This document shows, piece after piece, positions 7,001 through 62,400 of a stretch of 64,000 nt of DNA. A program made the position numbers and the translations under genes. The stretch's first letter is position 1. Each line of letters opens with the position of its first letter. The DNA is taken from positions 2,006,618 through 2,070,617 of the forward strand of contig CAJINV010000012.1 in NCBI GenBank assembly GCA_905178155.1, given 5' to 3'. The notes below the pieces were generated by a model that searched no databases, was not told the origin of the DNA, and saw only the letters and a program-made list of their open reading frames with translations. Origin of the DNA: Amoebophrya sp. A120. Its lineage: Eukaryota; Protista; Dinoflagellata.

Positions 7001-10000
7001 AATTTCGATCTCGTTCTCCCTTTCTTTCAACGTAGAAGTGACTTCGCTGTTCAGCTGTCGCATCTTCGTGAGCAGGTCTTTCAGCTCCTCGTTGGTCTTT
7101 TCTGCACCAGAGTAGGAAGCGGAAAGGTCGGAGTAGCTGCGATTTTTAATTGAATACGATCTGCATCTTCAATGCGGTATTCTATGCAACGCTGCAAAGA
7201 AGGCACGCATTATCTCTCTCATGTTCATCTCGTCGTGCGTAGAGGGAAGTAATGCGCCGCACCACGACCAATTCAAACAACCACAAAATACGCTTTCTCC
7301 TGGTTTTCCCGATACGCAACAGCTTCCTTTTCCAATTTCTCGTTGCTTTTCTCTAATGCCGCCTTCTCGATCTGCAAACTTTTTATCGATTCAACGTTGG
7401 CTATGTGCACCACACGCAGCTCAGCCGCCGCCATCCGTTCTCGTTCGAGTATGAGTGTGCACAACTCCGCCTCCCCCTCATTTGTCATGCAAAAAACCAC
7501 ATGCGCCCCATGCCTCTCGGCACTTTTCGCATGACAAGTTCTGGATGCTCAATCAGCACTACAATCTTCCGGGGTGAATTTGTCACGCAAAGCCTGCACT
7601 CTTGCCGACGCTTGTATTGCTGTTGGTGCCATACAAATGAGGGGGAGGGTGAGTTGTGCACCCTCGTATCGAGTTCCCCGACTGTGGAAGCGAACTTGTC
7701 CATGTGATGCTCCTCCCGCTTAGATTGCTCTACACGCCCCACCTCGAGAGCTTGGAGCTGATAATTTTGGTTTTTATTCATTGCATAGGATTTTGATTTT
7801 CGATGCAGAATGAGTAGTAGAAATGCAAAACCGAAAATGAACCAGAATCAACCAAATGCAAAAAAGCCGGCGCACAGAATCAAGACAGGGCTGTCTTTGA
7901 AGGCACAATAGAAGTACTACTGCGATCCGAAACACGAGCCAGCATCATCTCTCGCTCGATAAAAATACCTTTTCTGCCATGACGAGGCGTTCCTGGTCAA
8001 ACGAGCGCATTCTGTCCTCCATGAAGCGAACCTGCTCCTCCGCGGCTTTTCTGTCATCACGTAACTATCCAAGAAAAAAAGTGAGTAAGTGTAACTTTTT
8101 TGCAGGAACAGCATCACAGATTTGTTCTGCATGACAAAGAAAACCTGTCATGCGTAACTAGTACCAGTACGCGAAAACACGTATTGAAATAGCCTCCGCT
8201 CTGATGTTGCATACCCAGCATGACAAGTGTAACTGTATTGCAACATCTGCAAGGCAAAGTTACACTTACACAGTTTTTTTCTTGCATAATAGCCTTTTCC
8301 TCTCTACTTCCATCTCTTCCGTTTCGGACTTCTCCAGCGTGACCAACTTCATGTGCTCCGTGTGCAGCTCGTCGTGCTCTTTCTTCATCCTTTCAATGTC
8401 CTGCTTCAACACCGTGATCTCGGTTTGGTACTGTTCCCGTTCGTGGATGAATTCCCGCAGTTCTCCCGACAGCGTGTCTCTTTCGATCACGTAATTCGCC
8501 ACCTCCTCGCGGTTCGCCTCCTTCGCCTCCTCCACTTGAATTTTCAGTTTCTCGATTTCCTGCGCCTTTTCCTCTAATTTTTGCTCTACACCCAGTCTTT
8601 CGTGGTCCTTGTCGGCGATTTTCTGTTTCCACTTCGTCTCTTCTAACTGCAGTTTCTCCTGCGAGTTGTTCTGTTCCTCGAAAAACGCAGTTTTGGACTT
8701 CGCAATTTCCTGTTCGAGGAACGCCTTCTGTTCGGCAAGTTGCTTGTGGAACGCTTTCTGCTTCAATTTCTCGTTCTCCTCGATCTCCTTTAGCTGCTTG
8801 TTGTGCGCCTCCACCAGCGCCTCAATTTTGGCTTGCAGGGCGGAATTCACAGTGGTCAGGGAAACCACACGCTGCTCCATGGAGGCGATCTGAAAAAAAT
8901 GAAGTATGGGAATTTCATCTCTGCATATTTTGACAAATGAACAACTACACATAGTTAGACTTACCATGCCTATCATGGCACGGTGCATCACAAGACGGGC
9001 TCGGGGATGAAGATTTAGCACCTGTAAGAAAAATTTCTAAACTTTTCTCCATACCTGAACATCAAAGTTCTCCCGTAACTTTTCGACCTCCTCTTCCTGA
9101 GCCCGATACACCACCTGGCTCTCGTGTAACAGTTCCCGTAACCGGCTCGCTTCTGCCCGCCCGCGCGAGCACTCCACCGCCAATGAGTTGAAGGACTTCT
9201 GCAAGTCTTTGATCAAGTCCACTCTCTGCGGCAGTTCCGGATCCAGGAAACGGAACAGGTTCACCCGAAGTTCCTCCCTTGCACGCTCCGCTTGCTCCAG
9301 CGTGTTGTAGCGAACTGTGATTTCATGATCATGTCGCGATCCTTTTTTCGTGGAGCCTCAAGCTACAATGCGTATATGACAGCACGGCAACAATCAATAT
9401 CATGATGATGAAAACTATCGGAAGAGGACAAGACTGCTACAACAACACTCCTCCACTATACTCTCCTGATCCCGCAGCTTCACTGTGAGAAATCTTGCGT
9501 TGTCCTTTTCCCAGGCCAAGTACTTTTCAATCGACACTTTGCTGTTTCGGATAATCTCGATGTGCCGCATATGCAATGTAAATTTCCTGTACATGTACAA
9601 AATGCATGACAAATTTCGCTACATTGCAGAGTCCAACTTGTCATGCTGGACTAGGATTGAAGGCAAGTTTTGTCATGCAGAGACTGCATATGTACGTGTA
9701 CGGGAAATTTCCTGTGGATACGGCAGCCCGGACTTTTCCTTGGACCCGTTCACGCCGCTCGCTGGTATGATAATCTTATCCTGTGCAAAAGTATCGCACT
9801 CGTATGAATTGCAGGTATGCATGACAAATCTGGTTTCCTACCCAAATCTGCATTACAAATTCCAATTTTCTTCCTGATAAAATTTGTCATGCGATTTATA
9901 CTAGTAAGTACGATACTTTTGCAATGCATAAATCTTCTCCTTCTCCGCTTGTCTCGAGCTCGAGCTCGATGCTGACGACGCAGTGCTGTATTTGTTTTTC

Positions 10001-13000
10001 TGCATATTATTCACGCGCGATGCCGGTGCGAATGTCATCGCCGCGTTTGCGGCCGTTGTCTGCGCCGCCAGCAGCTGTGTAGCGGCCACAGACGTTGCAG
10101 TGGCATTTGGCAACATGAAGGAAGTAGAACCGGTGGCCGCAGAGGACGATGCAGAAAGGTCGTTGTGGGCGTTAGAAGCAGGAGGAGCCACTGCTAATGG
10201 TGCGAAGTTGCTGCTAGCCACTGCTGCATAATTAACCGCGTTCGTCGTTGGTCTTGCACCTCCTGCCTTATCGAGTTTTGAAACGTTGATTTCCTTCTCG
10301 GGTTCCGCAAGAGAAGCCGGTGCTCCTGCCCCAGCTGCCACATTCTGTTCTTCCGCTGCTTCAAAATACGTGGCCGCAACTTCCAGCCGTCTCTTTTCTT
10401 CCTGCTCGTCTATTTCCTCTTGTTCTCGGAAGTAGCTGTTTACTCTTGCATCCAGAATGGTCTGCTGTAGTCCCGTCGTTTCCTTCGCCTGCGTCGCAGC
10501 CATTCTACTCACCGTCATCGCAGCTTTAGTTGTAGTACTTTCTTGATGCTCAAGAACATCATCCAACTCCTCTTTGCTGTGATCGTTTTCCTTATCGTTA
10601 TCCTCCTCCTCGTATCCTGTGCAAAAGTATCGTACTCGTATAAATGCAGGTCTTGCATTACAAATTTCTTTGTCGACGAAAATCAGCATTACAAATTTTA
10701 TTTCTCATGCTGAGAAAATTTGTAATGCATTTATACGAGTACGATACTTTTGCAGTTCATACCTCGGTCACAATTGCAACGTTCGCCGCAATCGCAACTT
10801 CGTCCCCGTTATGGACTGCAAAAATGTCTGGGTCTGGAAGGTTGGAACTTGTGATGCTAACTTTGGACTCTAAAAACTTCTGTATTGCATGACCAGCAAG
10901 AGGAGTCCGGTTTGTGCTACGCGTGGAGGGCATTTGTCATGCGGAATAGGCATCAGGAAGGCCTCTAAAAATCTGTGATGCTAGGGCTTCCATGACAGAC
11001 ATTCTGTGTCATGCAAAAACAGCATAACAAATTTCGGATTCTTCCAGACCCAGACATTTTTGCAATCCATACCCGTTCTCACCGCCCTCTATCCTTTCGA
11101 AGATCATTTTCGTGGTCACTCCGACCGATTTATCAAATGTAAAAATGTCTGGGTCTGGAAGATTGCAACTTGTCATGCTAAATCAGCAGCATGCAAAAAT
11201 CTGTGTTGCATGATGGCCAAAAGTCGTCCAGTTTTGACCAAGTCGGGAGGTAGTTTCTCATGCAGGATAGGCATTAGAAAGGTCTCGCAGAATCTGTCAT
11301 GCTAGGTCCTGCATTCCAGACCTCATGGCGGGTCATGGAAAAGCAGCATGACAAATCGCGCATTCTTCCAGACCCAGACATTTCTGCATTTGATACGATT
11401 CGGCGATCTTCTCCGGGGCAGCTTTCACAAACTCCTCCGCTTCGAGAAACTTTTCGTCTACTTGTAGTTCATCGTCCTGTGCGGGTGCTGGGGGTGCGGC
11501 TTTCGGATCTTCCAAAGCGGCCGCGCCAAGTGGTGGGCCTCCAATAGGGTTTTGGATTGGCGGTCCTGATCGCGCTTCTTCGTTCTCCATTGACATAATT
11601 GCGTCGTCTTCTACAATCATCTCGGTACTTCTGTAAAACTCCGCTTGCTCTTCCTCTTCATCTCCACCCGCAGCTACTAGTACACCCTGCTCTACTACTG
11701 CCGACGCATCTTCATCTTCTTTGACCTGCGCCCCTGTTGCGCCATCTGGATCCGTGCCGTCCTCGCTATCAAATGTAAAAATGTCTGGGTCTGGAAGATT
11801 GCAACTTGTCATGCTGTTTTTGCACTCTAAAAAAATTTGTATTGCATGACCAGCAAGATTGGTATAATCTGTGCTACACGGACAGGGCATTTCTCATGCG
11901 GATGGTGCATTAGGAAGCCCTCTAAAAGTCTGCGATGCTAAGTCATGCATTACATGCATCATGGGTCATGAGAAATATGCATGACAAATCTTGCATTCTT
12001 CCAGACCCAGACATTTTTACATTTGATACTCGCCGTAGTAAAGCAAAACCGCACTGTTCTGGACGTTCCCGTGCCTTTGCTGGTCGATCCGCAATGCTTC
12101 CGCGGAGGTCGGCGGCGGGAGCCGGTATTTCAGCAACTCTTCGTTTTGAAACAACTCCGGAGGAAGGAAGATGTTCATATTCTTTGTCGCTTCTTGCGGC
12201 TGACTGCTAGTACTTGTTTTCCCTCCACCACGACTAGAAGAAGACGAGCTCGAACTCGTCGTCCCACTAGCGCTACTGCTGCCCACGCTCGTACTGGAAC
12301 TAGAGTTGGAAAGGGATAAAGAGTTGCTGCTAGTACTGTGCTTGTTGTTGTTCCCCTTGGTCTTCTCGCCGGCCGCAGCTACTCCATTGGTGGTGGAACT
12401 GGATGCTGATGTACTTGTTGAATAAGTGTTTTTATCCTTATCCGTCCAGTGATTGATCTGCCTGGGTCCAAATCCCGGCGTCTGTGTCCCGTTTTTGTTC
12501 GCTTGGAGATACAGCCTGCCACGGCCGCCTGGGACAAATGATGAAGAAGTTGCTGAAGTTGATGTTGTGCCGGCACTATTACTTACTTTCGCGGTCGTTG
12601 CAGAAAACGCTCGGGTCGTGGTGGAGGTCGCATTTGCTGCTGCTGCGGCTGCTACCGAGTAGTGGTTGTTCTTACTGTTTGCACCGAGATGTAGTTGTGC
12701 TGCTGTCGTCGCCCCTGCTCGCGGTGACGGAGCGCCAGTGCTCTTTTGTTTTGGTTTTGCGTCAGAACCTCCTCGTCGTGTCGAAGAACCTGAAGATGAC
12801 CTGCTCGAAGTAGAGGACGCAGAGACCACCTTCTGTGTAGTAGGAGCACTGACGAGGCTAGAAGAAGTGCTCTGACGCACTTGCATCAAACTTCCGTTTT
12901 TACTGCTGTTCATCCCGCCAGGTACAACATTTGGAGCCGTCGTCCCCGTTGCCTGTTCTTGCGGCATTACGTGCCGCGGCTCATCCGGGGACGCCAGCGA

Positions 13001-13261
13001 AATTTTCGCTGCGGGGTTGGATTTGGATGTTGTCGCAGATTTGTTCCTCATTTTCGGCTCCAGTATGATCACGGGTTTCACGTCGGAAAAGTACATGTTA
13101 CCGATTTCTTGTGTTGTGTACGTCGCTGTACGCGAAAATTTTTTCTCGTATACTCCGCCCGTGCCTAAACATGTTTTTGCTTCTTTAAAAATTTCGCAAA
13201 AGGTAAAGATCTCGCGAAACCGCGGGTGAAAGTCGTGGCGAACGAAGCAACTTCTCGACAT
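4068..13261 (-). CDS. Large multi-exon low-complexity/coiled-coil protein (10 IEs plus conventional introns); start uncertain
   Basis: ORFs from 12017-13261 down to 4068-4379 join in frame when IE+5 nt is removed (e.g. NSNS|NSSTNLITP, GEL|ERER, KRL|RDDR); GT-AG introns at 9022-9054, 8890-8964, ~7758-7968; some junctions unresolved. Confidence 0.6.
4341..4505. mobile_element. IE family A-like, degenerate
   Basis: TATGCGTTGCAAAA...TTTGCAATGCATA; flanks ACCGC/GCCGA (3/5). Confidence 0.75.
5526..5651. mobile_element. IE family A
   Basis: TATGCGCTGCAAAAGTATCG...GCACAGGATA; DR TGGAG. Confidence 0.9.
7450..7668. mobile_element. IE family C
   Basis: TATGAGTGTGCACAACTC...GAGTTGTGCACCCTCGTA; DR TCGAG. 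Confidence 0.9.
8066..8288. mobile_element. IE family D
   Basis: TATCCAAGAAAAAAA...TTTTTTTCTTGCATA; flanks GTAAC/ATAGC (3/5). Confidence 0.85.
9570..9720. mobile_element. IE family E
   Basis: TATGCAATGTAAATTTCC...GGAAATTTCCTGTGGATA; flanks CCGCA/CGGCA. Confidence 0.9.
9777..9930. mobile_element. IE family A
   Basis: TATCCTGTGCAAAAG...CTTTTGCAATGCATA; DR AATCT. Confidence 0.9.
10613..10761. mobile_element. IE family A
   Basis: TATCCTGTGCAAAAGTATCGTACTCG...GCAGTTCATA; DR CCTCG. Confidence 0.92.
10810..11071. mobile_element. IE family B
   Basis: TATGGACTGCAAAAATGTCTGGGTCTGGAAG TIR; DR CCCGT. Confidence 0.92.
11131..11395. mobile_element. IE family B
   Basis: TATCAAATGTAAAAATGTCTGGGTCTGG TIR; DR CGATT. 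Confidence 0.92.
11767..12028. mobile_element. IE family B
   Basis: Family B TIR; DR CTCGC. Confidence 0.92.
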
Positions 13262-13528
13262 TTGCTTTTGGCTTTTGCCGACTAGAATCGGCTACTTCAT
13301 CTCTCAAGCTCTGCCTGGCTTCTTCTCTCACGAACACTCAAAGCATAAGCACGAATACGATGTTTGCTATGATTTCTTTCAAACGAAAGTTCTTTAGCTT
13401 TAGCGCGTACAACGATGACACTGCGAACATTGAAGCACAAACTTGCTACTTTGCGTGAAGGCTGCAAAAGCTGGACGATGCGAAAGCAGTGCGATTTCGT
13501 AAAAATGTCTTACTCTTATATCTTATTC

Positions 13529-24457: not shown

Positions 24458-24459
24458 AA

Positions 24460-36300: not shown

Positions 36301-36586
36301 TAAAGTGCATGACCCGGGGTACGTGTGTTGCAGAGCAGGCAAGTGAGGCCGATTGTGAGCCTGTTTGGGGTTACAGCTCGAGCTGCTAGAGTAGCATGAG
36401 AAAATCGCTCTTCTTTGCCTAAACAGCATGACAAACTGGATTCAGGGACCACCGAAATTTGTCACTGGCATCCATTTTATGCATGACAAATTATTTCAAC
36501 TTTGTCGATTTCAACTCTGACACATCCATATGGTGAGTGCTGGTCGTGCCGGAGGATGCTGGGGTGGTGGAATCTTGATCGGGCAT
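27320..36586 (-). CDS. Ankyrin-repeat, C-terminal-motor kinesin (kinesin-14, KCBP-like motor)
   Basis: Neck HNHVEDLKGSIRVFVRVRP; P-loop DG|YNVTIFAYGQTGAGKTYT; NSESSRSH; DLAGCE; VPYRN; N-terminal ankyrin repeats (TLLMYACGFG, TALHHCC, TPLMVS); 18 IEs; junction 29520-29840 unresolved. Confidence 0.85.
27811..28081. mobile_element. IE family B
   Basis: Family B TIR; DR CTGTT. Confidence 0.92.
28145..28372. mobile_element. IE family D
   Basis: TATCGCAAAGAAAAAAGTGTTACAGT TIR; DR TTCTC. Confidence 0.9.
28452..28666. mobile_element. IE family K
   Basis: TATCGTACGAAAAAAGTGCTTCACTGTA TIR; DR ATCCG. Confidence 0.9.
28867..29134. mobile_element. IE family B splitting the kinesin DG|YN motif
   Basis: Family B TIR; DR TCCGT. 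Confidence 0.92.
29888..30103. mobile_element. IE, divergent B-like, DR decayed
   Basis: TATGAATCGCAAACA...TGTTTGCGAATTGATA; frame restored by removing IE+5. Confidence 0.75.
30171..30397. mobile_element. Degenerate IE
   Basis: TATGCATCACAAA...TTTTCCGGATCATA; flanks TCCAT/TCCTT. Confidence 0.65.
30840..31631. mobile_element. Nested TTA...TAA TIR element
   Basis: TIR TTAGGGGTGAAAAAAATCCAT / TTAAGGCTCAAAAAAATCCAT; DR TTATA. Confidence 0.85.
31277..31356. repeat. 80-bp near-perfect palindrome
   Basis: TTCTTTCAAACTTCAGCTGAAG...CTTCAACTGAAGTTTGAAAGAA centred on AAGCTT. Confidence 0.85.
31768..31912. mobile_element. IE family A, opposite orientation to the 10613 copy
   Basis: TATGAACTGC...GCACAGGATA; DR CTTCG. 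Confidence 0.92.
32056..32200. mobile_element. IE family A, near-identical to the 31768 copy
   Basis: Family A TIR; DR ACCCG. Confidence 0.92.
32294..32799. mobile_element. IE family B carrying a retroelement fragment
   Basis: TATCCACTGCAAATATGTCTGG...TTTGCATTCGATA; DR TTCTC. Confidence 0.88.
32334..32559 (+). mobile_element. 5'-truncated non-LTR retrotransposon (LINE-like) 3' end
   Basis: 20-bp DR GGGTCTGGAAGATGTCATGC (32314-32333, 32560-32579); A-rich tail; encodes GKLRAGRPFVNYVDKL...stop. Confidence 0.7.
33634..33829. mobile_element. Older IE whose right DR is split by the next IE
   Basis: TATGCTAGGGAAAAGCAT...ATGCTTTTGTTCCGATGCATA; DR CCAGG after reconstruction. Confidence 0.8.
33833..33981. 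mobile_element. IE family A inserted at the boundary of the 33634 IE
   Basis: 36-bp TIR with 1 mismatch; DR TACCA. Confidence 0.92.
34050..34329. mobile_element. IE family B
   Basis: Family B TIR; DR GGGGA. Confidence 0.9.
34480..34697. mobile_element. IE family D, opposite orientation to the 8066 copy
   Basis: TATGCAAGAAAAAA...TTTTTCTTGGATA; DR CCCCC. Confidence 0.9.
34787..35060. mobile_element. IE family B
   Basis: Family B TIR; flanks GCGCC/GTACC. Confidence 0.88.
35262..35528. mobile_element. Highly decayed IE / intron
   Basis: TATGCA...TGCATA ends; residual inverted GACAATCATGATG; DR decayed. Confidence 0.6.
35813..36116. mobile_element. IE family H variant
   Basis: TIR core GGAAAAATCCCCCCTCCCCATAG; flanks TTAAG/TCAAG. 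Confidence 0.88.
36250..36530. mobile_element. IE family F
   Basis: TATGGATGTGTCAG...CTGACACATCCATA; DR TGGTG. Confidence 0.92.
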
Positions 36587-43800: not shown

Positions 43801-45437
43801 GGTACGTTTTTACTCAGGATAAGCATCCCATCTACTTCGTCGTCGCCGGCAGAGGAAATGTGCTTCACAAACTCGATCAAATCTTATGACAGTGCACAAC
43901 TCCCCCTCCCCCTCATTTGTCATGCAAAACACCAAATCCAGGCTGTGCCTCTTGGCAGTGTTTGCATGACAAACTCAGGAACTCCAAACAGTAGTACAAT
44001 CCACTATAGATTTGTCATGCAAAACCGGCATTCTTGCTGATCCTTGTATTGCCGCTTATGCTATACATCAAATGAGGGGAGGGGGAGTTGTGCACTGTGA
44101 TAAATCTCGCCAGGCCTCCATCTCGCCGGTCAGAACCGGCTCGGCGATGCACAACTCGGTGAATTCGCAGTACCCGTTGTAGAGTTGCCGGATGACCAAG
44201 TTCAGGATGGTCGCCGTGTGAACTTTTTCGTACGTGTTGCCCCGCTCTGGGTGGTTCGGATCCGGCGGACCCCAGGCCATCTGGTATTCATATAACGAAA
44301 AAGGAGCTTATCACTCATTTTGGATGCGACAGGAACAACACGACCCGTCGCCCGCCAAGCAAACAGGACTAGTGAAAGCAACCGATAAACAGGAAGAGAA
44401 CGATTGAAAAGATTTTATTTAAACGTAGTTTGCAAATGTAAATGTTGAAATACGAAAACGTCCTTGACCCACATGGTATCCCAGCCCCAGATGACGGAGT
44501 ACAGCCTTGTTTGCTGAATCGCGATCTCTTTCAACCGTAAGTCATCGTTCATGGCCTCCTTGATTTTGTACAGACTCGTCAATGGGTTCTGGAAAACGGA
44601 GTTCGCAATACGCCGGATGTTGGATTCCTGGGGCGGCAATGCCGGAATCGCGTTCTGGATGTATTGCGGGATCTCCTTAAACATCTCGGCCCAGGTTTTC
44701 GACCGGTTCAAAGCCGACTGTGCCGGCGGCTGTTGAGAAGATGGTGCACCAGCCGCAGATGGGTTATTTTGTACAAAAGAGGCAGCTTTACTATTTGCCT
44801 GTCCTGCGGCCGGGGAAGGTGGCGTCCCCCGTCCTCCTTGCTGCGGAGGTGGTCCACGCGCAGCGCCGGCTGCTCCAGGTGTTTGGCTGCTCCAGGTGTT
44901 TCGTCGAGCTAGTTGTGGCACGGACACGGAACGCGCAGCCGCGCCGCTCGCCCCGGGGCCTCCACGACTACAAGTATTTCGACTGGCAGAGGATATTGAT
45001 GACCCTCCGGCGCTTTGATTCAGCGTGCCACCGGTTTCGCCCTGGACGAGTTGTTGCTGTAATAATCGGATCTGTCGCTGCTGCAGTTGGGGTTGTTGTA
45101 GCGGTTGTTGAAGACCAGTCCCAGGTGCTGACCCCGGACCCGGTACAATAGAGTTCTGCCTCTTGAATGCGGGGACGGTCGGCGGCCGGTTTCGACTAGA
45201 CATGGAGCCGCCCGCTGCTGCTCCCGCCGCCGCGAGAGGTGTAGTTGTAGCACCAGCATGAGACGACGAGGCACTGCCGCGACCACGGGGAAGGAGGGGT
45301 GGCATTTTTGGAGCTCCTGGTGCTCCTGCGGCCGCAGTGGTGTTGCCGTTTTGTTGCATGATTTGGTGCTGATAATTTTGTAGTTGTGGCCCTCCAACTG
45401 CTCCTGTAGGTAGAGTATTTTTACCCGCCTCACTCAT
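40853..45437 (-). CDS. Hypothetical low-complexity protein with one TM helix
   Basis: ORFs join across 4 IEs and one GT-AG intron (~44281-44459); TM LFGLVTTLMVTGIFVLLFLMCI. Confidence 0.6.
41671..41938. mobile_element. IE family B
   Basis: Family B TIR; DR GTGGT. Confidence 0.9.
42015..42164. mobile_element. IE family A
   Basis: Family A TIR; DR AATCA. Confidence 0.9.
43543..43821. mobile_element. IE family H with a perfect 32-bp TIR
   Basis: TATCCTGAGTAAAAACGTACCCACACCAGAGT at both ends; DR AGCAT. Confidence 0.93.
43885..44102. mobile_element. IE family C
   Basis: TATGACAGTGCACAACTCCCCC TIR; DR AATCT. Confidence 0.92.
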
Positions 45438-50061: not shown

Positions 50062-53000
50062 CTACGCCAAATAGTTGTACACTGCCCTATCCTCCGTTGA
50101 CCGTTCGAGATACTCTCGCTCCAGCAGCCGTTCGATCCTCTGCTTGATTAACGCCGGGGTTGGCACGAACCTATCAAATGCAAATGTGTCTGCGTCTGGA
50201 AGATTGCCATGTTTGTCATGCATGTTCCGTATGACCCATGAGGCCTGCAGTGCATGGCACAGCATCACAGATTTTTGGAAGGCTTCCTGATGTCTATTCT
50301 GCATGACAAACGCCCTCTCCGCGTAGCACAATCTGGGCTCCTCTTCGTGGTCATGCAGTACAGATTTTTTTAGAATCCAAAGACAGCATGAGAAGTTTGG
50401 ATCCTTCCAGACCCAGACATATTTGCAATGCATAGAACCGGCTGCTCAGCATCTTTGTCGCCTCCGCGATGAGGTTGTTGTGGGAGAGAGTTCTGCGCGA
50501 CTTCATAATCCTGACGATGACCGCCTCGGTCAAGTGTTTCCGGTCCTCTTCCACGCTGGCCGGCATATCCGAGGCATGCTGCTCCCCCTCGTAGCCGCGG
50601 AGAAGGGCTTGTTGGTGGTCAATCTGCTCCTTAATCAGAGGAACGCGGACGCGGGAGAATTTAGATTCGAAATCCGGGTTCACGCAGAAAGTGTCGCCTG
50701 ATGATGTTGTGGAGATAATTGTTTCTTTCGAAAGCAGGAGTTTGTCATGCGGAAACGCGCATTGTACTCGAAGTCTTGAGAACTACACCAGTGTGATGGA
50801 GAGTGCATACACAAGTCTTACCTTCCTGCGGCTCCTTTCCCTGGTCCTTCCGGCCACCGCCGCCACTCGCAGTCCCCCCGCCGTGATTGTCAAAGTCGTT
50901 TGGGTTGCCGCCCGAGGTTTTCAACAAAATCCGCGCTTTGCTGTTTCCGTACAGGCTGGACTATCAAATGTAAAAATGTCTGGGTCTGGAAGGGTTGGAA
51001 CTTGTGATGCAAACTCTGGAACACACAAGAAATTGTGTTGCGTGAGCTGCTCCAAAAGCTGTCCATTTCCTGGCACGCAAGTAGGAAGTTTCTCATGCGG
51101 GAGAGGCATCATGAGGCGTGCTCAAAACCTGTGATGACGCCATTTGCGTGATCCGAAATATGCATGACAAATCTCGCAATCTTCCAGACCCAGACATTTT
51201 TACAGTTGATATGGACAGGTGTCGTTTCATTTCCTCGATGGGAATTTTGGTCTGCTGCAGGAGCTATCGAATGCAAAAATATCGTACGCGTAGTAATTGC
51301 AGTGGTCCTGCATGACAGGAGTCTTCATCTAACCCACAACTGCATGACAAAGTTCGTTTTTTTCTTTTGGGAAACTAAATTGTCATGCACTTACCACTCG
51401 GTACGAAGATACCTTTGCAATGCATAGGAGCTCGGAAAAACTCAGTGTCTCGTGCTCGTTAAAGCAATATAGCAGGACCATCTGGTAGGTGGAGAGCAGC
51501 AGCGTGTAGGGCTTAGAACCTGGAATATTTCAAATTTTCTTTTGAAGTTGTGAAGGATTTGTAGCATGAACTCAGCTAAAATGGACGAAAAGTCCTCACG
51601 CAAGAACCACATCTTCACTACTGAAAATCAAGATCAACCGGCGTAGCAGGTACTACGACGACGTACAATTTTATACCTTTCGGCATCCTTGCCCGGACAT
51701 CCGCTTGGCCGTAATTGAAATTCCAGGTCAGTCTCCTGCCCTGGTGCTTTTGTGCGTAAAATTGCTCAAACGTGTCTATCGTTATCTTCAGAGATTTGGG
51801 AATTTCGCACGGCCCGGGCGCAGGGACCGGCCAATAGCCGGAGGTAAGTACGGACAGTCGCATTTCGACGTTGTTGAGATTGGTGATTGGGTGCTGCTGA
51901 TGGAAGCTTTTCGTCAGTTCGTCGCTGGCTTTCATGTCGTTTAGCATTCCCTCCAGCTTCGCCGTGTACTGGTGCCCGCATTCGCCTGTGATATGATTTT
52001 TCAAACGTGTTTGTCATGCAGGAGCGCGATTAAGTAAAAAATCTGTGATGTCGATCGTCGGTGCAAGCAACAAGAAAGATAATAGAGACTTCTATTCTAC
52101 TATTCATACCTTTCAGCTTGCTGATCATTAATTTCTCCGTATCATCCGCGTTTTTCCCGGCCAACAATCGTTTCGCGAAATACTGCTTGTAGTAACTCTC
52201 GAAAATATCCTTGTCCGACAAATAGCGAAATATCGTGACCACCTGGTCCATATGGATTGCAAATATGTCTGGGTCTGGAAGAGTGGCGCAAACTTCTTAT
52301 GCATGTTTTCCATGCCCCATGAGGTTTGGAATGCGGGGCCTAGCATGTTGGCAGGTTCTGCGAGGACTTCTCTATCATGCCTATCCTGAATGACAAACTG
52401 CCTCTAAACTTGTTAAAAAGTAGTGGACAGGAGCTTCTGGTAGTCATGCAACACCAATTTTTGTACGATCCAGACTTAGCATGACAAGTTCGCATCTTCC
52501 CAGACCCAGACTACATGTTTGCAATGCGTAGTCAAGTCTGGTCTCGATGTCGACGTCCGCCGTCGTCATGGAACTTGACTTCGCGCCCTTCTTGATCAAG
52601 TCGGTATCCTGTGCAAAAGTATCGTACTCGTATGCTGGCAATCATGCACTACAAATCTTGCTCTTAAGGTAAATCAGCATTACAAATTTTATCTCTCATG
52701 CTGAGGAAATTTGTAATGCATTTATACGAGTACGATACTTTTGCAGTTCATAGTCGTCGACAAATAACGACAAATACTGGGCCGTTTTCGTGTCCTATCC
52801 TGAGAAAAAAGTGTTACACTTACACACCCCCATGGAAGACAAGCAAGACAGACGACCTCTGTCATGCAGGAAATGCTTGCCAGTCTCATTTCATTCGTGT
52901 TTTCCCTTATAGTCTGCGCATCACAGGTTTTCTTTGCCATGTCGAGCGACTTTGTGATGCAGAAACTCCAGCAAATGTGTAACTTTTACACTGTTTTCCT

Positions 53001-56000
53001 GTGATATGTCTACGTTTAAGCATTCCTCAAAACTGGTTTTCATGGAAAGCGAAAACTCCTTGCTGTTGCCAAAAGACTCCCGGACATATGAAAGCCTCAG
53101 GTTGGAAATCCTCAAAGTGAAAATTGCTATATATTATATTCATGCGAAAAAAGAGGTAGACAGAGGGTAAACAAGAGGTGGCCGAGAGGTAAAAAAGAGG
53201 TCAAAAGAGGTAGAAAAGAGGTCGATAGGGGTGGAGAGGTGGCGCGGGACCCCGTTCGAGAGGGTCGGCGAGAGGGTGCGCGAATAAGGCCCGCCGAAGC
53301 GCTCACCTTAAAGCGCCGCCTAAGTGCCTGAGAGGGTGCAGAGAGGTCAAAAAGAGGGGGCGCGAGAGGTCGACAGAGGTGGAGAGAGGTGGCGCGAATA
53401 AGGGGCGACCTCTCGCGGGCCCTCTTGGCCACCTCTCGGCCACCTCTGTCGACCTCTGCCCACGAGTATAGCCGGACTATTAGCGGGGACCCCCAAAAGA
53501 GGCCAAAAAGAAGGCCTGCGAGGGGTCTGCGAGAGGGTAAAAACACAAAAAAGCGGGCGCGAATCCGCATGGTAGTCCCCACATTTGGCATTGCAGGCAT
53601 GTCGCGGCCTTGTTTTGTTCAGCGCCTTGCTTTCCGCGCCACCCTCTCGCGCACCCTCTCGCGCACCCTCTCGCGCCACCCTCTCGCGCCACCCTCTCGC
53701 GCCACCCTCTCGCGCCACCCTCCCGCGCGACCCTCTCGCGCCACCCTCCCGCGCCACCCTCTCGCGCTACCCTCTCGCGCCGGGCGGCTTCTGTTCGCCC
53801 CCGGTGTTCTTTGCAGCTGCTCCCTGCGCAGAGCGCCCGCAGGCGCGGGAGGCGCGCAAGTGGTGCTGCGTGTTGGCGCGGCGCAACCAGGCGGCAGGAC
53901 TCCAGTATGTTTCTTTGTGCGCAGGCCCGTGGCGTTGTGGTCCGATCAGCGAACAGTCTTGCCCCGGCCCAACAGCCTTGCGCTCCGGCGGCAGCCGGAG
54001 CATGGCTGGTAATTTGTAATGCAAAAAAACGACTCCAGTTGAAGCGTCATTTGTAGTCGGCGCATGACAAATTTCCCGGGCACTCAAAACGTGTCTGTCA
54101 TGCTAGTTAGGCAAAGAGGTGCCCTTCTGTCGCGCTAATTAGCAGCCCAATTCTTCACCCCTAACAGGACAATAGTCGGCCTCCATTGTGTCCTTTGCAA
54201 TACAGTCTTTTTTGCCTTGCATTTCATGCATCACAAATAATTATTTCCACTTTGAGGATTTCCATTCTCAGGCTTTCATAGGACAAACACGCTGTACTTG
54301 TTCCGGAGTTGGAGCAACGCTTCGATTATGAACTGCAAAAGCATCGCACTCGTACTAATTGCAAACATGCATGACAAATCTTTTTGCTAAGGCAAAACAG
54401 CATTACAAATTCCATTTCTAATGCTGAGGGAATTTGTGATGCTATTTATACTAGTAAGATGCTTTTGCATTGCATATCGATGAACTGCACCGGCTGGTCT
54501 TTATCGCAAGAAAAAACTGTTTCACTGTGAACTTGTGATGCAGAAAATAGAACACAGAACTCTTTGTCTTGCTACACCTGCAAGGCATTGGATTTTCAAG
54601 CGTGTTTTCCCTTGGGAAGCGCGCATGACAAATTTTCAGTGTCATGTGTGGCAAACTTGTAATGCAGATCCTGCAAAGTCATCACAGTGAAACAGTTTTT
54701 TCGTGGGATAGTCTTTCGTGCTGGATTTATTGGTTTCTGTTCCTGCTGTTCCGGTTGCGGAGGATGTTGATCCAGCTGCTTGATTTTGAAGATTATCCCC
54801 AGCACTCCCGTCCTGTAGATCGGGCTGCTCAGCAGCAGATCCAGATGCACCAGCAGCGGCCTTATTTTTCATCTTCCCAGAAGAGTTGCTGTTGTTCAAG
54901 ACAGCAAATCCCGCTTCCTTGATGCACTCCCGCAAAACGTTGTGCAGCGGTTTTAAACATTCCGGACACCGTTGGAACAGGTCGTGCATCCGTTTCAAAT
55001 CGTCGACTTTATCCTCCAAAAACATTTGCTTGGCGCCGTTGTTGACTAGAGTTTCGTAGTGTCGTAAGATCCACTCTTGGTCCATCAAATGCTGTATCCT
55101 GTCGAGCGTGGAGTCGTGGAGATAGCTATGTACCCGGTGCTTCTCCTCCAAAATTATGCAATGTAAATTTCCTGTACATGTACAAAATGCATGACAAATT
55201 TCGCTAACTTGCAGTGCCCAATTTGTCATGCTAGACTAGGACTGAAGGCAAGTTTTGTCATGCAGTGACTGCATTTGTACGTGTACGGGAAATTTACTGT
55301 GGATAAAAATCCGCGCCTCCGCCTTTTTCAGGTAATCCTGACATATGGATTGCAAACACGTCTGGGTCTGGGACGAGATTGCGAGACGTGTCATGCTAGT
55401 CTGGCATGACTCTGGGATCTGTATTGCGTGGCAACCAAGAGGAGGTCCTCTTGATTTTCATGCAAAAAGCACTCAGTTTCTCATGCGGAATATTACGCAA
55501 CACAGAACCATGAAAAACTTGTCATGCTTGGCGGCGCATTACACTGGGCTCATTATTCGGTGACTTGCATCACAACTAACTTTCCAGACCCAGGCATATT
55601 TGCATTGGATATGACACGTGTTCTGACTGATGTACTTGTTCGACTCTGCCTGGTAGAATTCCTTATCAAATGTAAAAATGTCTGGGTCTGGAAGAATGCA
55701 ACTTGTCATGCTAAATCTGAAGCATGTGCATGCAAAAATCTGTGTTGCATGATTACCAAAAGTCGTCCAGTTTTGACCAAGTCGGGAGGGAGTTTCTCAT
55801 GCAGGATAGGCATGAGAGAGATCGCACAGAATCTGTCATGCTAGGTCCTGCATTCCAGACCTCATGTGTCATGAAAAAGCTGCATGACAAATCGCGCAAT
55901 CTTCCAGACCCAGACATTTTTGCATTTGATATTCCTGACTGGCTTGCAAAAACGGCTCCTCGAAAGACTCCCGGTACACAAAAATTTGCGCCCCGTTGTA

Positions 56001-58238
56001 GGAATTTTGGATGCTTTGCCACGGCGCCGTGCTGGAACTACTCCCCCCGGAACTCCCCCCGGTGCCGAAACTAAGTTGGTTACTGTTGTAGTTGCCGTTT
56101 GATGTAGTAGTTCCACCGCCGAAGAAAGAACTGTTGCCAGGAGCCCCTCCACCTCCACCAGCATTCATCATGCCTCCAGTCGCGCCACCGCTGCTGTTAC
56201 CACCCATACCTGTCAAGCTCGCCGTACTGGAGTTCGCGGAAGATGGCTGGGAGAAGTTATTATTGTTGTTAATATTCCTGTTCATGTTATTCTGATTCGG
56301 GAGTAAAGCCATGATTCCGCCAGAACCACCTAACTCGACGAGCATGTAGACCATGTGGCGGAGCAGTAATTTGTCGATCGTTTCCCCGTTCCGCTCTGCC
56401 TTGATCCAGTCCAGCATGATCTTTTGCAGCCGATCTTTCACCTTCTCGTGGTGGGTAATTTGATGTCGAAACTGCACTAAACCAACGTCGTAGACCGGGA
56501 CTGTTTATCCATTGCAAAAACAACGTACTAAGTAGTACAAATTGCATCACAAATTTGGTCACTCAGCTAAAAAATGGAATGCGTGATGCTTGCTTTACTT
56601 GATGTGTACAAAGATAGTTTGGTCCTCTTGAAGTTGAACTTTTACTTTTTCATGCACAATGACTGCCATAACTAGTACGAGTACGACATTTTTGCACAGG
56701 ATACTTTCTTCTGCTGGGTGACGTAGTTGCGGTCCATGTACATCAGGATATCTCGGATCATTACCATGGTCGTCTTGTGGTCGTCCCATTGCAGTTTGAT
56801 GGTCTCCAACAAATTCTCGTTTGTTGCGTTCGTCACATATCCTGTGAAAAAGTATCGCACTCGTAGTTGTAATCGCAGTCAAGCATTACAAATCTCCCTC
56901 TTAACCAAAATCCGCATTACAAATTCCATTTTTCATGCTGAGAGAATTTGTCATGCCATTTATACTAGTAAGCACGATGCTTTTGCATTGCATATCACAT
57001 TCCCGCTCGTTTCCTGTAAGTGATCCCGTATTACCTCTTCCACGCCGTTGTACAGCAATATGGGAGTGTCAGGACCGAAATCGACAAAATCGAAAAACTT
57101 GTGATGCACAAAATCGATGCCCGTTAGACCCACAGTTTGTAGTCGGCGCATGACAAATTTGCCACGTCCTGGAAGCGAAGCTGTCATGCGGTTTAGGGCA
57201 AAAGAGCTCCCCTCCGCCATGCTAGCCACCAACCCGATTCGTGACCCTTAGCAGGATTACAATAACAATCTGCCTCCTTTGCGTCCCATGCAATAGAGTC
57301 ACTTTTTGTGTCGCATCTTCTGCATGACAGATTATTTCGACTTTGTCGATTTCGATCCTGACGCTTCCATAAGCAACTCGCCATGCTTATGGAGCACGAG
57401 GTTGTAGGCGTTCCTGAGGTCGTAGCAGGGTGATTTTTGTACGTATAATACTTGCAAGTCGACGATGACGTAAAATGCAATCTATCTCGCTGCAGCACAC
57501 GGACTTCTACAGCATGTGCATGTTATATCAAAAATGCAAAGAAATTATAAAGCAAACTACGGGGGGGTGGAACAAAACAAGCTGTCATAGCTGCGGCGAT
57601 GTAAATGATCTAAACAGTACCTGTAGAGTTCCTCAAAACTCAAGGTAGACGCGTTGTGCTGGTGGATCTGGTGTATTGCTGCTTTCAATATGCAATGTAA
57701 ATTTTCTGTACATGTACACAATGCATGACGAATTTCGCTAGTACCTTGCAGAGTCCAACTTGTCATGCTGCACCAGGATTGAAGGCAAGTTTTGTCATGC
57801 AGAGACTGCATTTGTACGTCGTGTACGGGAAATTTCCTGTGGATATTCAAGCTTGCCCACACGTTTTCCGCATCGCGTTTGTTCATGGGATCACTATGCA
57901 TTGCAAATATGTCTGGGTCTGGAAAGTTGTAATGCTAAAAGTGAATTATAGATGCACTACAATACGGAGCTAGACATGACAAATTTTTTGGCTGCCATCT
58001 CCTACGTATTCCGCATGGCAAACTGCGTTTTTGTATAACAGGCAAGAGGGCCTTTGCGTGCCTATGCAACACAGATTCTCGAGTCATGCCAGACAAGCAT
58101 GACAAACTTGCATTCTTCCAGACCCAGACATTTTTGCAATCCATAATCACCGGACCTGAACAGTTGCCTCGTCCGGTTCACGGCAGCGCTGGCGTGGCCC
58201 CCGGCGCCCCGGGCTGCGTTCGCCGAACTGTAGTTCAT
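50062..58238 (-). CDS. CUL3: Cullin-3-like E3 ligase scaffold (17 IEs plus 4 GT-AG introns)
   Basis: [12 protein letters not shown]|[61 protein letters not shown] (neddylation site), [12 protein letters not shown]...YNYLA; GT-AG introns 50698-50821, 51520-51676, 51986-52109, 57414-57620. Confidence 0.93.
50172..50434. mobile_element. IE family B
   Basis: Family B TIR; DR GAACC. Confidence 0.92.
50962..51211. mobile_element. IE family B
   Basis: Family B TIR; DR TGGAC. Confidence 0.92.
51265..51426. mobile_element. IE family A-like
   Basis: TATCGAATGCAAAA...TTTGCAATGCATA; DR GGAGC. Confidence 0.88.
52251..52530. mobile_element. IE family B
   Basis: Family B TIR; flanks GTCCA/GTCAA. Confidence 0.9.
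52605..52752. mobile_element. IE family A
   Basis: Family A TIR; flanks GTCGG/GTCGT. Confidence 0.9.
52796..53006. mobile_element. IE family D
   Basis: TATCCTGAGAAAAAAGTGT...GTTTTCCTGTGATA; flanks TGTCC/TGTCT. Confidence 0.88.
53124..54009 (+). mobile_element. Non-autonomous Helitron-like element
   Basis: Inserted between A and T with no DR; AT-rich 5' end TTGCTATATATT; hairpin GCTCCGGC-GGCA-GCCGGAGC (53982-54001) ending 8 nt before the 3' terminus, which is CTGG (CTRR). Confidence 0.7.
53636..53781. repeat. 12-13 bp minisatellite (GCCACCCTCTCGC)n
   Basis: About 11 tandem copies inside the Helitron-like insert. Confidence 0.9.
54327..54476. mobile_element. IE family A
   Basis: Family A TIR; DR TCGAT. 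Confidence 0.9.
54502..54710. mobile_element. IE family K
   Basis: TATCGCAAGAAAAAACTGTTTCACTGTGA TIR; DR GTCTT. Confidence 0.9.
55155..55305. mobile_element. IE family E
   Basis: Family E TIR; DR AAAAT. Confidence 0.92.
55344..55611. mobile_element. IE family B
   Basis: Family B TIR; DR TGACA. Confidence 0.9.
55664..55931. mobile_element. IE family B, very similar to the 11131 copy
   Basis: Family B TIR; DR TTCCT. Confidence 0.92.
56506..56703. mobile_element. IE family A, degenerate
   Basis: TATCCATTGCAAAAA...TTTTTGCACAGGATA; flanks CTGTT/CTTTC. Confidence 0.8.
56838..56994. mobile_element. IE family A
   Basis: Family A TIR; DR TCACA. Confidence 0.9.
57059..57371. mobile_element. IE family F
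   Basis: TATGGGAGTGTCAGGACCGAAATCGACAAA TIR; DR AGCAA. Confidence 0.92.
57689..57845. mobile_element. IE family E
   Basis: Family E TIR; DR TTCAA. Confidence 0.92.
57895..58145. mobile_element. IE family B
   Basis: Family B TIR; DR ATCAC. Confidence 0.92.
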
Positions 58239-59488: not shown

Positions 59489-62400
59489 TCAATCCCCAGC
59501 ACTTCCGCCCCCATGGTCCAAGAACGAGGGCTTACTGGTGCTCGTCAACTGCCGCAACCGTTTTGTCGCGTCCGATCCGACTTTCGCATGCGCAAACCCG
59601 ACGGTTGCGGTGACCCCGTTTTCGTGGTTTTCCCTGGTGAAATATCAAGCAAAAAAGTGCTAACGTTAACGGTTTTGTGGCATTCCAATCATGCATGACA
59701 AACTCTCGCTATCGTGCATGCTATGCAATACAAATTTGGGCATGATTTCTCGTGCACTCCTGCATGCCAAATTCCGTTAACGGTAACACTTTTTGGTGTG
59801 ATACGAAAACGGTGAAGTAGTGTCGCATGAAGACTTCACCGAGCAGCATCCCCGGCCCGTACCCCTCCGGGAGATCAATTTCCATGAACGCCAAGTCGCA
59901 CAAATCAGATTCGTCCGTCACCATGTAAATCTCCTGCGGAATTAACAGCTCCTCCAATTCTCCCGTTTCCCCGTTTCGCAACACGTACGCGAGCGGCGGG
60001 TAAGTTTGGTCATTGATTTCGCTGCATTGCACGGCCGGGAGTCTTTTCTGCAGGGTCGCGTAGAGTTTCTTGCCCGCGGTGAAATAAGTCGTTCCGGTAT
60101 CTACCACAAGCTTCGCATTGGCTTTGGCGTGCGGGAACAGCTCGTTGGCCGTTTTTTGCTGGAGAAAGGAGGAAGAGGAGGACGAGACAGGGACTGCACC
60201 AGGGGAAGTTGAAGTAGGATCATCATGCGAAGAAATCATACTAGGCGAGGAGGTCGCGGCAACCGCAACATCTACCTGCTCTGCAACCCTGCTAGACACG
60301 ACCTGCTGTGTAGTTGCTGTTGATGGGATCCCCGCAATCACTGCAGATGACCCTGCACCCGCGTGGAGGTAAAGGCCGCCGTTCGTAGTTGATGTTTTTC
60401 GCTGGTCTGGAAGAAGATCATGTTGGAATGTTTTTCGACCGTCTGGAAGAAGATCATGTTGCTGGTGTTGTTGAAAATCCTTCGAACTTCTCTCGTTGTC
60501 GTTTCTGGTCCTTCTTGCTTGTACACGACCCGCCTCTGCGTCTGCTTGTTCAGTTGAAACGGCAAGTACTGAGTCTGCGCTGCTTCGTGCAAGTTGTGTA
60601 GATACAGCACGCGGTGCGCCGCTGAATTCCTCTTGATACGGCCGAATGGTGATTTCGTGGACAGAAGCTGCTGTTGTTTTAGCTGCAGATAGAGCTTCTT
60701 CACTACGAGGATGATGAGCTCCGGCGGTAGTTTCCTCTCCACGCGCCCGCCGCAGTAATTTTTTCATCTTTTTGGTTTTGCGGCCGAAAGATGAGTGGTC
60801 GGTGGTTTCATCTTCGTCAATCTTCATTTCCAGAAACGAAGCCGTCGCAGCGCTGCCAGGAGTGGTCGTCGTTGCACTTCCGGCAGAACCAGCTGAGAAG
60901 TTGATGTCCTCTCCACCTCCGCCTTGCTGCGCAAAAATCACTCCCTCGTCATCAATGGTCATACCGCTACGGGGAGCAACAAGAGCTTCGTCAACACTAC
61001 CGCTTGCTCCTTCGACATCTCCCCTGCGCCTTGCCCCCTCATCTTCGTTTTCTCCCTGCAACAAACCCCCAGCACCTGCTTCCTCGCGCTTCCGGACAAA
61101 CTCGCCCGTGCTCACGTCGTAGATCTCATCCCCGACCTGTGAGAGTGCAGAACTCCCCCTCCCCCTCATTTGTATTGCATGAAAAGCAATACAAGCGTCA
61201 GCAAGGATACAGGTTTTCCATGACAAATTTAAACAGGAGTGTGTGTAGTACTATTTGGGTTTCCAGAACTTGTCATGCAAACAGTGCCAAGAGGCAAGGC
61301 GTAAATTAATTAAGTAGGTACTTTGCATGACAAATGAGGGGGAGGGGGACTTGCACACTGTCATACGACCCGAAATTGGTACAAGTCCAAGCTCCAGTAG
61401 TGCTGCTGCGTCACGTTGAAGCGTTTGATCGGTGGTTCGTAGAAATGCTCGTTATCAAATGTAAAAATGTCTGGCTCTGGGTCTGGAAGATTTCTAGATT
61501 TGTCATGCATATTTTCCATGACCCATGATGTCTGTGATGCATGCCGTAGCATCACAGATTTTTAGAGCGCTTCCTCATGCCTATTCCACATGACAAATGC
61601 CATCTCCGCGGAGCACAAAATCTACTCCTCTTACTGGTCACGCAATACAAATCTTTTTCGAATCCAGAGACAGCATCACAAGTTTAGTTTCTTCCAGACC
61701 CAGACATTTTTACATTTGATACTCGTCCACGCCGCCCCAGAACAGCCCGTTGAGGGGTTCTCGCGAATTCTTCCCACCAGCACCGTGGGACGACTTGTCG
61801 TTGGGGTCTTGTACCGTTGCTATGAACTGCAAAAGTATCGTACTCGTATAAATGCATTACAAATTTCCTCGGCATGACAAATGAAATTTGTAATGGGGAT
61901 TTACCTTAAGAAAAAGATTTGTAATGCATGATTGCAATACGAGTATCAGATACTTTTGCACAGGATAGTTGCCGCTTCTTCCATGTTGAAGTAAAACGCA
62001 AATTCGTTCTTTTGCAACACCTCCTGCTTTATGCAATGCAAAAGCATCGCACTCGTACTCGTAGTAATGGCAATCGTGATGCATTAGCATTACAAATCTT
62101 TCTGTTAAGCAGGTGACTCCGAATTACAAATTTTCTTTCTCATGCTGAGCAAATTTGTCATGCGAATTATACTAGTACGATGCTCTTGCATTTCATATGC
62201 TTGATCACGTTGTCAAAAAACGGCACCGCGTTATTCGCGGACATCGAGGGGAACGCCAAGCCCAGAATCCCCTCGAAGGGGATAGATTTGAACGCGTCAC
62301 CGATTTCCTTCTCAATTAACCCGAACGACTGCTGTTTTACGGTGAATGGTATGCATTGCAAACATTTGGTGCCATGATGTATGTCTCTGGCATGACAACT

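Follow-up and report, generated by a model that had tools for sequence, protein, structure and literature searches.

In the 64,000-nucleotide stretch of Amoebophrya sp. A120 DNA analyzed here (the window), copies of the same introner family lie in opposite orientations within genes of one strand, which raises the question of what signal can remove such an intron whichever way it was inserted. About 65% of the RNA-supported introns of A120 are non-canonical, 29,850 of its introns are repeated elements, and neither a clear splice signature nor U1 was detected, whereas U2, U4, U5, U6, and nearly all spliceosomal proteins are retained (Farhat et al., 2021; PMC7789003). The A120 introner elements described in that study have TAT-initial inverted repeats, an A stretch, direct repeats of 3–5 nt, non-GT-AG borders, and RNA-seq support, and a hairpin model for them has already been proposed (PMC7789003). 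The first-pass annotation of the window took the presence of both orientations to mean that the removal signal is strand-symmetric, being either a stem of terminal inverted repeats (TIRs) or a mark recognized in the DNA.

We found all nine elements on which that argument was built in the window sequence, at the coordinates given for them. They begin with TAT, end with ATA, and are bordered by 5-nt direct repeats, except that the element at 61138 starts with TGT and that at 7450 ends with GTA. Their cores were compared by local alignment after 30 nt had been trimmed off each end. The family A copies at 10613..10761 (orientation 1) and 31768..31912 (orientation 2) scored 34 on the same strand and 95 as reverse complements. 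The corresponding scores were 34 and 199 for the family D copies at 8066..8288 (orientation 1) and 34480..34697 (orientation 2), and 24 and 290 for the family G copies at 39195..39498 (orientation 1) and 53087..54280 (orientation 2, interrupted internally by a long insertion). In family C, the copy at 61138..61365 (orientation 2, sense 3' end ACA) matched those at 7450..7668 (orientation 1, sense 5' end TAC, with a perfect 5-nt target-site duplication, or TSD) and 43885..44102 (orientation 1) as a reverse complement, with scores of 121 and 120 against 24 and 26 on the same strand; the latter two matched each other on the same strand (100, against 26 in reverse complement). The four named pairs are thus internally reverse complements, as first reported, with scores of 95–290 against a maximum of 27 in 300 shuffles.

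Clustering of 63 elements gave eight families (49 elements) and 14 singletons, and none of the 183 edges was inconsistent in orientation. Seven of the eight families hold both orientations within minus-strand genes (counts in the two orientations: A, 11/5; B, 7/6; G, 3/2; D, 1/3; C, 2/1; B2, 2/1; E, 1/1; F, 3/0). The elements are mostly 126–350 nt long, on the sense strand 60 of 62 open with TAT, position 13 is A in 58 of 62, and the two copies of the 5-nt TSD are identical at 44 of 62. They are MITE-like in having TIRs, a TSD of fixed length, no coding capacity, and either orientation. They also share with the published A120 introners the host, the TAT-initial TIR with its A stretch, the 5-nt direct repeat, the repeated families, and removal from RNA; organism and elements are identical. 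Three candidates of an initial set of 59 were left out: 10810-12028 and 62350-63279, each of which spans its neighbors, and 23642-24045, which was weak.

The host genes lie on the minus strand, as had been proposed. They are a coiled-coil protein gene (P0002, 1970 aa; 4068..13096, ends approximate) with 10 element and 6 GT-AG introns, an ankyrin-repeat kinesin gene (P0003, 1221 aa; 27323..36586, start approximate) with 18 introns, none of them GT-AG, a cullin gene (P0001, 949 aa; 50065..58238) with 17 element and 4 GT-AG introns, and an aspartyl protease gene (59492..63656, ends approximate) whose 3' part is covered by P0004. Three window exons match A120 proteins at 100% identity and a fourth matches a further record at 100%, and each of these exons lies on the minus strand; for cullin, three CT..AC joints in a transcript contig agree.

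Both orientations are removed, and with precise junctions. In cullin, one transcript contig contains none of the 17 elements, among them copies of a single family in opposite orientation, and each is missing together with 5 nt. Among the joints listed (15 of 30), all 12 at elements, from four runs, skip exactly the element plus 5 nt; at 53087 the joint skips 1199 nt. The stretches between listed joints have the expected lengths (338, 79, 829, and 325 nt, both expected and observed), and the 325-nt value comes from a kinesin transcript contig from which the family B copies at 27811..28081 (orientation 1) and 28867..29134 (orientation 2) are both missing. These contigs come from at most two samples of one study, and the runs are presumed to be RNA by an automated assignment, no listed source being registered as such; the raw RNA runs X9 and X10 placed 88 and 2 reads on the window, nearly all partial fits. 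For the named copies, removal follows from a direct contig joint at 53087, from gene-model proteins at 7450 (element plus 5 nt, P0002), 8066, 10613, 31768 (P0003), 34480, and 61138 (P0004), and from restoration of the open reading frame at 39195 and 43885. The first-pass annotation had relied on restored frames. Its conclusion that copies are removed either way stands on the exact cullin joints, but a restored frame is by itself weak proof, because deleting any element together with one TSD copy recreates the old sequence. An 813-nt sum for a protease contig was circular and was set aside.

The DNA-level reading holds that a repeat-bound protein marks the ends in DNA or during transcription, or that the element is excised from the DNA itself. 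The repeats and subterminal motifs would resemble transposase-binding sites, and motif counts inside elements are equal between the strands (83 versus 77). However, in run X5, which we took as DNA from its flat depth (one sample, with contigs that drop rare variants), all 14 element ends beside the eight long pieces listed are joined to their flanks, reaching 25–91 nt inside, with 5 of the 14 reaching the 31-nt bridging threshold, and five old introns are spanned end to end. These DNA-like contigs retain the elements, which contradicts excision from DNA and an IES-like absence from the expressed DNA. GT-AG introns are also missing from the very contigs that lack the elements, and the register of the cut, described below, tracks the transcript. 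We consider a DNA-level signal unlikely; a mark that leaves the element in place is compatible with these contigs.

Template switching by reverse transcriptase at hairpins between direct repeats is a known class of artefact, and a hairpin with a short direct repeat, which is the anatomy of these elements, favors it; all of the transcript evidence is derived from cDNA or from models. Against such false junctions, the predominant contig of one cullin mRNA is spliced at 17 elements, and the register persists where as many as four of the five repeat bases mismatch. If retained, 28 of the 51 elements would cause a frameshift, and 19 of the other 23 have stops in all three phases. An artefact of this kind is very improbable.

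The removed introns do not require GT-AG. A reading with these borders is possible at any register in only 4 of 62 elements, and the elements lack the GT/GC donor and AG acceptor of U2-type introns: G is at +1 in 17 of 62, and AG is at the 3' end in 1 of 62. A second assembly gave weak signals for G at +1 (74/197, p=0.03) and AG at -2/-1 (25/197, p=0.008), both uncorrected, which would fit separate cryptic GT-AG sites with normal branch points in each orientation. Joints that remove the element plus 5 nt contradict such sites, as does the gene model at 34787, which bypasses an available GT-AG reading, and we regard this explanation, which would have overturned the original interpretation, as having almost no chance of being right.

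Where, then, is the cut? We define k as the number of bases retained from the upstream TSD copy before the cut, so that a cut at k=4 leaves 4 nt from the upstream copy joined to 1 nt from the downstream one. The TSD copies are unequal at 18 elements, of which 14 are informative; the others are 35813, where the difference is synonymous, and 24595, 38009, and 63019, which lie outside the gene models. All 14 sites fit k=4, against 12 for k=3, 9 each for k=5 and k=2, 6 for k=1, and 3 for k=0, and the product probability of the register fit under a uniform random cut is 7e-4. Several sites bound k individually. It is at most 4 at 8066 (TSD mismatch 2/5, gene model) and at 59643..59803 (adjacent contig pieces), at least 3 at 56506..56703 (TSD mismatch 2/5; bounded by where a contig piece ends, by the length of the contig, and by the gene model), and at least 4 at 9570..9720 (family F, TSD mismatch at sense position 4, gene model) and at 34787..35060 (family B, orientation 1), where the gene model prefers this register despite a GT-AG reading of the same length.

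The contigs alone place the cut after the third or fourth TSD base. We infer the fourth base exactly from the gene models, since k=3 is ruled out by two sites only (9570 and 34787), both through gene models that may share RNA data with the transcript runs and may carry aligner bias. When k=4 is set against its mirror, k=1, all eight discriminating sites retain the upstream copy (p=0.004 if orientation were 50:50), and the contig joint at 52251..52530 (family B, orientation 2; k at least 2) rules out the mirror register of the oppositely oriented copy at 34787. The intron thus likely begins 1 nt upstream of the 5' repeat and extends 4 nt past the 3' repeat, a register that tracks the transcript rather than the element. 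The resulting geometry, N-TAT[C/G]...[C/G]ATA-NNNN, fits 51 of 51 element-type introns of the four gene models, and in this register the element at 10613 is the sole GT-AG intron among 62. The first-pass view of a non-polar signal is therefore only partly sustained: removal occurs in both orientations and does not depend on GT-AG, but the cut is polar. Symmetry of orientation is no argument against polar signals, because the TIR gives either orientation identical ends.

With k=4, intron positions +2 to +4 read TA(T), which also holds for the local canonical donors, and neither G nor AG is required. All ten canonical donors in the window start with GTA, and seven with GTAT; canonical 3' ends are YAG or AAG, unlike those of the elements. 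In A120 as a whole, T is at +2 in all nine predominant non-canonical pairs (PMC7789003, Table S4); in A25, whose repeats begin with TTA, the same table is dominated by TT-NN sites. In 15 elements with diverged TSDs, mismatches affect 26 of 75 TSD positions, against 3 changes in 120 end-motif positions, a conservation that could partly reflect the needs of the transposase. An acceptor-like TTTTGCAG within the 3' repeat of the element at 54327 is bypassed in a transcript contig.

The same geometry would arise if, as in the nonconventional introns of Euglena, the repeats formed a stem in the pre-mRNA and dedicated machinery, perhaps outside the spliceosome, cut 1 nt upstream of the paired UAU and 4 nt downstream of the paired AUA. 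Such a mechanism keeps the RNA part of the original proposal but makes it polar. The geometry parallels the Euglena code N3-CDG...CH'G-N5-6 (PMC12501133), AG is not required, no branch point was found, and U1 was not detected in A120 (PMC7789003). A stem is available: positions 1–3 and 8–13 are complementary and predicted to be paired in most elements, strongly so at 8–13, and the A/T-tract is predicted to be paired in 51 of 58.

Selection on pairing at the RNA level was not detected in G-U bias, position-4 covariation, or folding. Position 4, which adjoins the motif, is nearly always C or G (61 of 62 at either end of the elements) but is mismatched in about half of them. It pairs in 34 window elements against 30 expected by chance and in 49 of 102 in the second assembly against 46.7 expected; neither set showed covariation. 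Three tallies across the window and the second assembly showed no excess of G-U over A-C on the sense strand (16/28, 31/33, and 75/69), and the three terminal variants in the window are all A-C mismatches on the sense strand (the second assembly has two G-U and two A-C). Sense folding was lower than antisense folding in 30 of 58 elements (p=0.43). Pair counts are not independent within families, and strand calls in the second assembly are weak for 296 of 406 elements and absent for 8; the coding model had learned from exons of the window itself, which makes its performance there (45 of 62 calls confident, every one minus) an optimistic check. The element at 63658-63796 was tried as a one-armed test of the stem and rejected: it has no frame-restoring junction, and the X3/X4 contigs diverge from the window at 63790.

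Four decayed introners bear on the same point. Three of them keep the end motifs and pair little above shuffles (p 0.05, 0.07, and 0.18): 29486..29833 (k at least 2; a retained-intron contig of depth 13.1 lies beside an exon contig of depth 184.5), 30171..30397 (k at least 2), and 35262..35528 (k of 3 or 4). The fourth, at 29888..30103, still pairs well despite a TSD mismatch of 4/5 (k at least 3). Together with the match of the element 5' end to canonical donors, these results leave a stem that joins the ends possible, and we hold the Euglena-like explanation as a tentative second reading.

We give about even credence to the explanation that these are transposon-derived introns, removed as element plus 5 nt in either orientation, in which a short motif at each inverted-repeat end is read, probably by a modified spliceosome, and fixes the cut at 1 nt upstream of the 5' TAT and 4 nt downstream of the 3' ATA. 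Insertion would duplicate 5 nt and, in either direction, leave TAT[C/G] at the 5' border and [C/G]ATA at the 3' border. The 5' end would then offer U+2 A+3 U+4, resembling the genome's canonical donors with the G at +1 relaxed, and the 3' cut would be placed by its distance from the [C/G]AUA motif and the T-tract, not by an AG. The repeat stem may aid young elements and seems dispensable in old ones, and catalysis might proceed via a lariat on a putative U1-less U2/U5/U6 core. No branch point was found in the elements when the CATGACAA-type motif was examined across families and 10 canonical introns. In many copies of families B, C, and G, this motif is found 35–51 nt before the 3' end; it was rejected because it occurs in only 2 of the 10 canonical introns and its position is not fixed in family A (65–129 nt). 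Outside elements, the strict CATGACAA motif occurs 10 times on the minus and 7 times on the plus strand.

That introners with inverted repeats occur both ways round is by itself to be expected and has precedents. DNA-transposon introners of Polarella glacialis (classes 2, 3, 6, 7, 8, and 10) form introns in either orientation with ordinary splice sites (10.1101/2020.10.14.339549), and Aureococcus introners, according to the same preprint, do likewise. There too, the positions of the splice sites depend on the TSD and the end of the element in either orientation, but G-H donors and AG acceptors come from the TSD or the element and constrain the target sites, whereas A120 elements need neither G nor AG and their TSD is nearly unconstrained. 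Euglena nonconventional introns have non-GT-AG borders, an inverted-repeat motif near the ends, unequal spacers (3 and 5–6 nt from motif to cut; PMC12501133), and a probable MITE origin (PMC12501133; PMC11282704), all similar to A120. The Euglena pattern of CDG...CH'G, these spacers, and a purine after the intron was not found in the A120 elements. A120 differs in its motif (TAT[C/G]), its spacers of 1 and 4, its lack of position-4 covariation, a first exon base that is a purine in only 37 of 62 and so not required, its recognizable repeated families, and a 5' end like host donors. Fritillaria borealis has MITE-derived introns with TIRs, TSDs, and non-canonical ends, reportedly removed by an adapted U2 spliceosome (PMC11282704; PMC13326754); it prefers AG-AC/AG-AT ends and conserves U1, whereas A120 allows any base at +1, -2, and -1 and U1 is undetected. 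Published borders of A120 introners are variable or undefined, whereas here a single register fits all informative sites and tracks the transcript. We found no statement of orientation or register for A120 in the literature searched, which left most subscription journals outside; the figures of PMC7789003 (Fig. 3, S19-S25) may show part of it.

We consider it somewhat more probable than not that A120 has its own splicing code, N-TAT[C/G]...[C/G]ATA-NNNN, in which the bases at either extremity of the intron are disregarded and both cuts are set by distance from the transposon end motif, so that any insertion, at any target and in either direction, would be a precise intron at once, and the host would in effect have adopted transposon ends as its main splice signal. 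A fixed register makes A120 splicing testable, from the place of the branch to whether U6 or a new reader recognizes U+2 A+3 U+4 and whether pairing or sequence is read, and it supplies a rule for re-annotating intron borders. If true, it would explain how mass insertion into exons was tolerated without target-site constraint.

Three exons in the window match proteins of Amoebophrya sp. A120 with full (100%) identity, one a cullin, one a coiled-coil protein, and one an ankyrin kinesin, and a fourth exon matches an aspartyl protease record at 100%. All four of these genes lie on the minus strand, in agreement with the first-pass annotation, which had placed the host genes there. In the accessible text of Farhat et al. 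(PMC7789003), A120 introners have inverted repeats beginning TAT and direct repeats of 3–5 nt, and the window elements are known members of this class. A scan for TAT...ATA ends and terminal repeats gave 59 candidates; three were dropped, two were added, and four decayed elements were taken from a gene model, which gave a set of 62. The annotation had also described the same families in both orientations, and this was confirmed: the cores of the four pairs that it named score 95–290 as reverse complements versus 24–34 on the same strand (shuffle maximum, 27), and seven of the eight multi-copy families in the window occur both ways round. In 129 loci (390,742 nt) on JACKZZ01 contigs of a second assembly, 406 elements were found. 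With host strands called computationally, the orientation split there was 24/17 for family A and 7/12 for family B among 102 elements called directly, and 41/30 and 13/21 among 197 called by locus. Intron creation in either orientation is reported for Polarella and Aureococcus in the available part of 10.1101/2020.10.14.339549, and the method of PMC9860276 allows for opposite-orientation copies.

The cullin gene is covered by one 3,965-nt transcript-like contig in sequencing run X1, with matching contigs in runs X2–X4; these runs represent at most two samples from one study, and their RNA type is presumed, supported by the loss of GT-AG introns. The contig displays 15 of 30 joints (three CT..AC introns and 12 elements), and every displayed element joint (12/12) skips the element plus 5 nt. 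The lengths also agree for the remaining five cullin elements plus one canonical intron, with 338 nt predicted and 338 nt found. Family B has copies of both orientations in this one transcript: 50962 and 55664 share one orientation, and 50172 and 52251 have the opposite one. A kinesin contig lacks four elements, two of which are the oppositely oriented B copies 27811 and 28867, and the observed length matches the expected 325 nt. Among DNA-like contigs of run X5 (flat depth 23–33), which may be the source of the assembly itself, all 14 element ends adjoining eight displayed long pieces were still joined to their flanks, five of them by at least 31 nt, and five old introns were spanned whole. 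It is unlikely that the elements are marked at the DNA level, or that template switching accounts for their absence from the transcript contigs.

Run X1 also holds low-depth intron contigs (29454–29863 at depth 13.1 beside an exon contig at 184.5, and 32337–32664 at 6.3 beside one at 128.8), which are some retention, pre-mRNA, or DNA. Elements 30704–31671, 32294–32799, and 53087–54280 are excised in full, over as much as 1199 nt, even though they carry long internal insertions; that of 53087–54280 is GC-rich with tandem repeats, and that of 30704 has further copies in runs X1 and X5. In an older element (33630–33984), the 5' splice site is interrupted by an inserted family A element (33833–33981), whose target-site duplication (TSD) runs from the end of the exon across the +1 base into the outer repeat's TA. 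The whole 355 nt is excised in the gene model, an arrangement that resembles a stwintron. At 16237–17571, a shorter element, itself bounded by a perfect 5-nt TSD, harbours a 1036-nt element (16340–17375) that also has a perfect TSD; the family of the outer element recurs in the second assembly. About 80 reads of the raw RNA run X9 fall on part of a family G element (39203–39281); they differ from it at six fixed positions, leave the exons uncovered, and derive from a related family located elsewhere. A partial family A element (14990–15168) has just one recognisable end.

Perfect 5-nt TSDs conceal the cut position, which becomes visible where the two copies are unequal. We expressed it as k, the number of bases of the upstream copy retained, read along the transcript. 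Contigs gave k ≥ 2 at 52251, k ≥ 1 at 52605 and 52796, k ≥ 3 at 56506 (where the far side was placed by length), and k ≤ 4 at 59643, which leaves either 3 or 4 for k. The constraints from gene models were k ≥ 4 at 9570 and 34787, k ≤ 4 at 8066 and 62350, k of 1–4 at 4341 and 3–4 at 35262, k ≥ 3 at 29888, and k ≥ 2 at 30171 and 29486. Only k = 4 fits all 14 sites, and we infer this exact value, k = 3 being excluded by just two sites, both derived from gene models. If element polarity set the cut, about half of the sites would be expected at the mirror value, k = 1, but none of the eight discriminating sites is found there; family B gives k ≥ 4 in one orientation and k ≥ 2 in the other. The first-pass annotation had proposed a strand-symmetric, non-polar removal signal. 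Symmetry holds insofar as either insertion direction gives the same two ends, but the cut itself is polar along the transcript.

With k = 4, the intron reads N-TAT[C/G]...[C/G]ATA-NNNN, a geometry that fits 51/51 element-type introns in four gene models. Their 5' motifs are TAT[C/G] (47), TACG (two), TATT (one), and a nested TATA (one), and their 3' motifs are [C/G]ATA (49), AATA (one), and CACA (one). T occupies +2 in 9/9 rows of the table of predominant A120 splice sites in the accessible part of PMC7789003. The target site is nearly free of constraint: G stands at +1 in 17/62 window elements and AG at -2/-1 in 1/62, and the second assembly shows, in the k = 4 register, a slight, uncorrected excess of both (74/197 and 25/197). 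In 15 elements with diverged TSD copies, 35% of TSD positions differ, versus 2.5% for end motifs. Except at +1, the element 5' end resembles host canonical donors (10/10 GTA, seven of them GTAT); the 3' end is unlike canonical acceptors. TTTTGCAG within the repeat of element 54327 is ignored, and use of cryptic splice sites is an improbable explanation of removal. The subterminal element motif CATGACAA occurs 25–44 nt before the AG in two of ten GT-AG introns (50698–50821 and 51986–52109), which may be old introners turned canonical.

The main rival reading, a Euglena-like stem-and-ruler machine, is a serious but less probable one. In most elements the two ends are able to pair (the A/T-tract is predicted paired in 51/58), as is expected of any inverted repeat. 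Comparison of G-U with A-C on the sense strand revealed no selection on RNA pairing (16/28, 31/33, 75/69), sense and antisense folding energies did not differ, and position 4 is always C or G yet paired merely at chance level. Three of four decayed introns have weak end duplexes (-9.7 to -14 kcal/mol, near their own shuffles), versus a median of -26 among the others. These results lean towards reading of a sequence motif, though the ends may still form a short or protein-stabilised stem. One family A element (63658–63796) lacks most of one arm; X3 and X4 contigs diverge from the window at 63790 and the gene model begins downstream, possibly reflecting an assembly gap.

The available text of PMC12130899 and PMC11453091 gives no A120 cut register, and in the published literature searched we found no fixed register that follows the transcript while leaving the terminal bases free. 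Judging from the portions of these papers available, the nearest splicing code is that of Euglena (PMC12501133), and the nearest adapted spliceosome that of Fritillaria (PMC11282704; PMC13326754). For the A120 elements, we consider the chances about even that a U1-less spliceosome would read U+2 A+3 U+4 as the donor, with the acceptor set 4 nt beyond the T-tract/[C/G]AUA end by a factor bound there.
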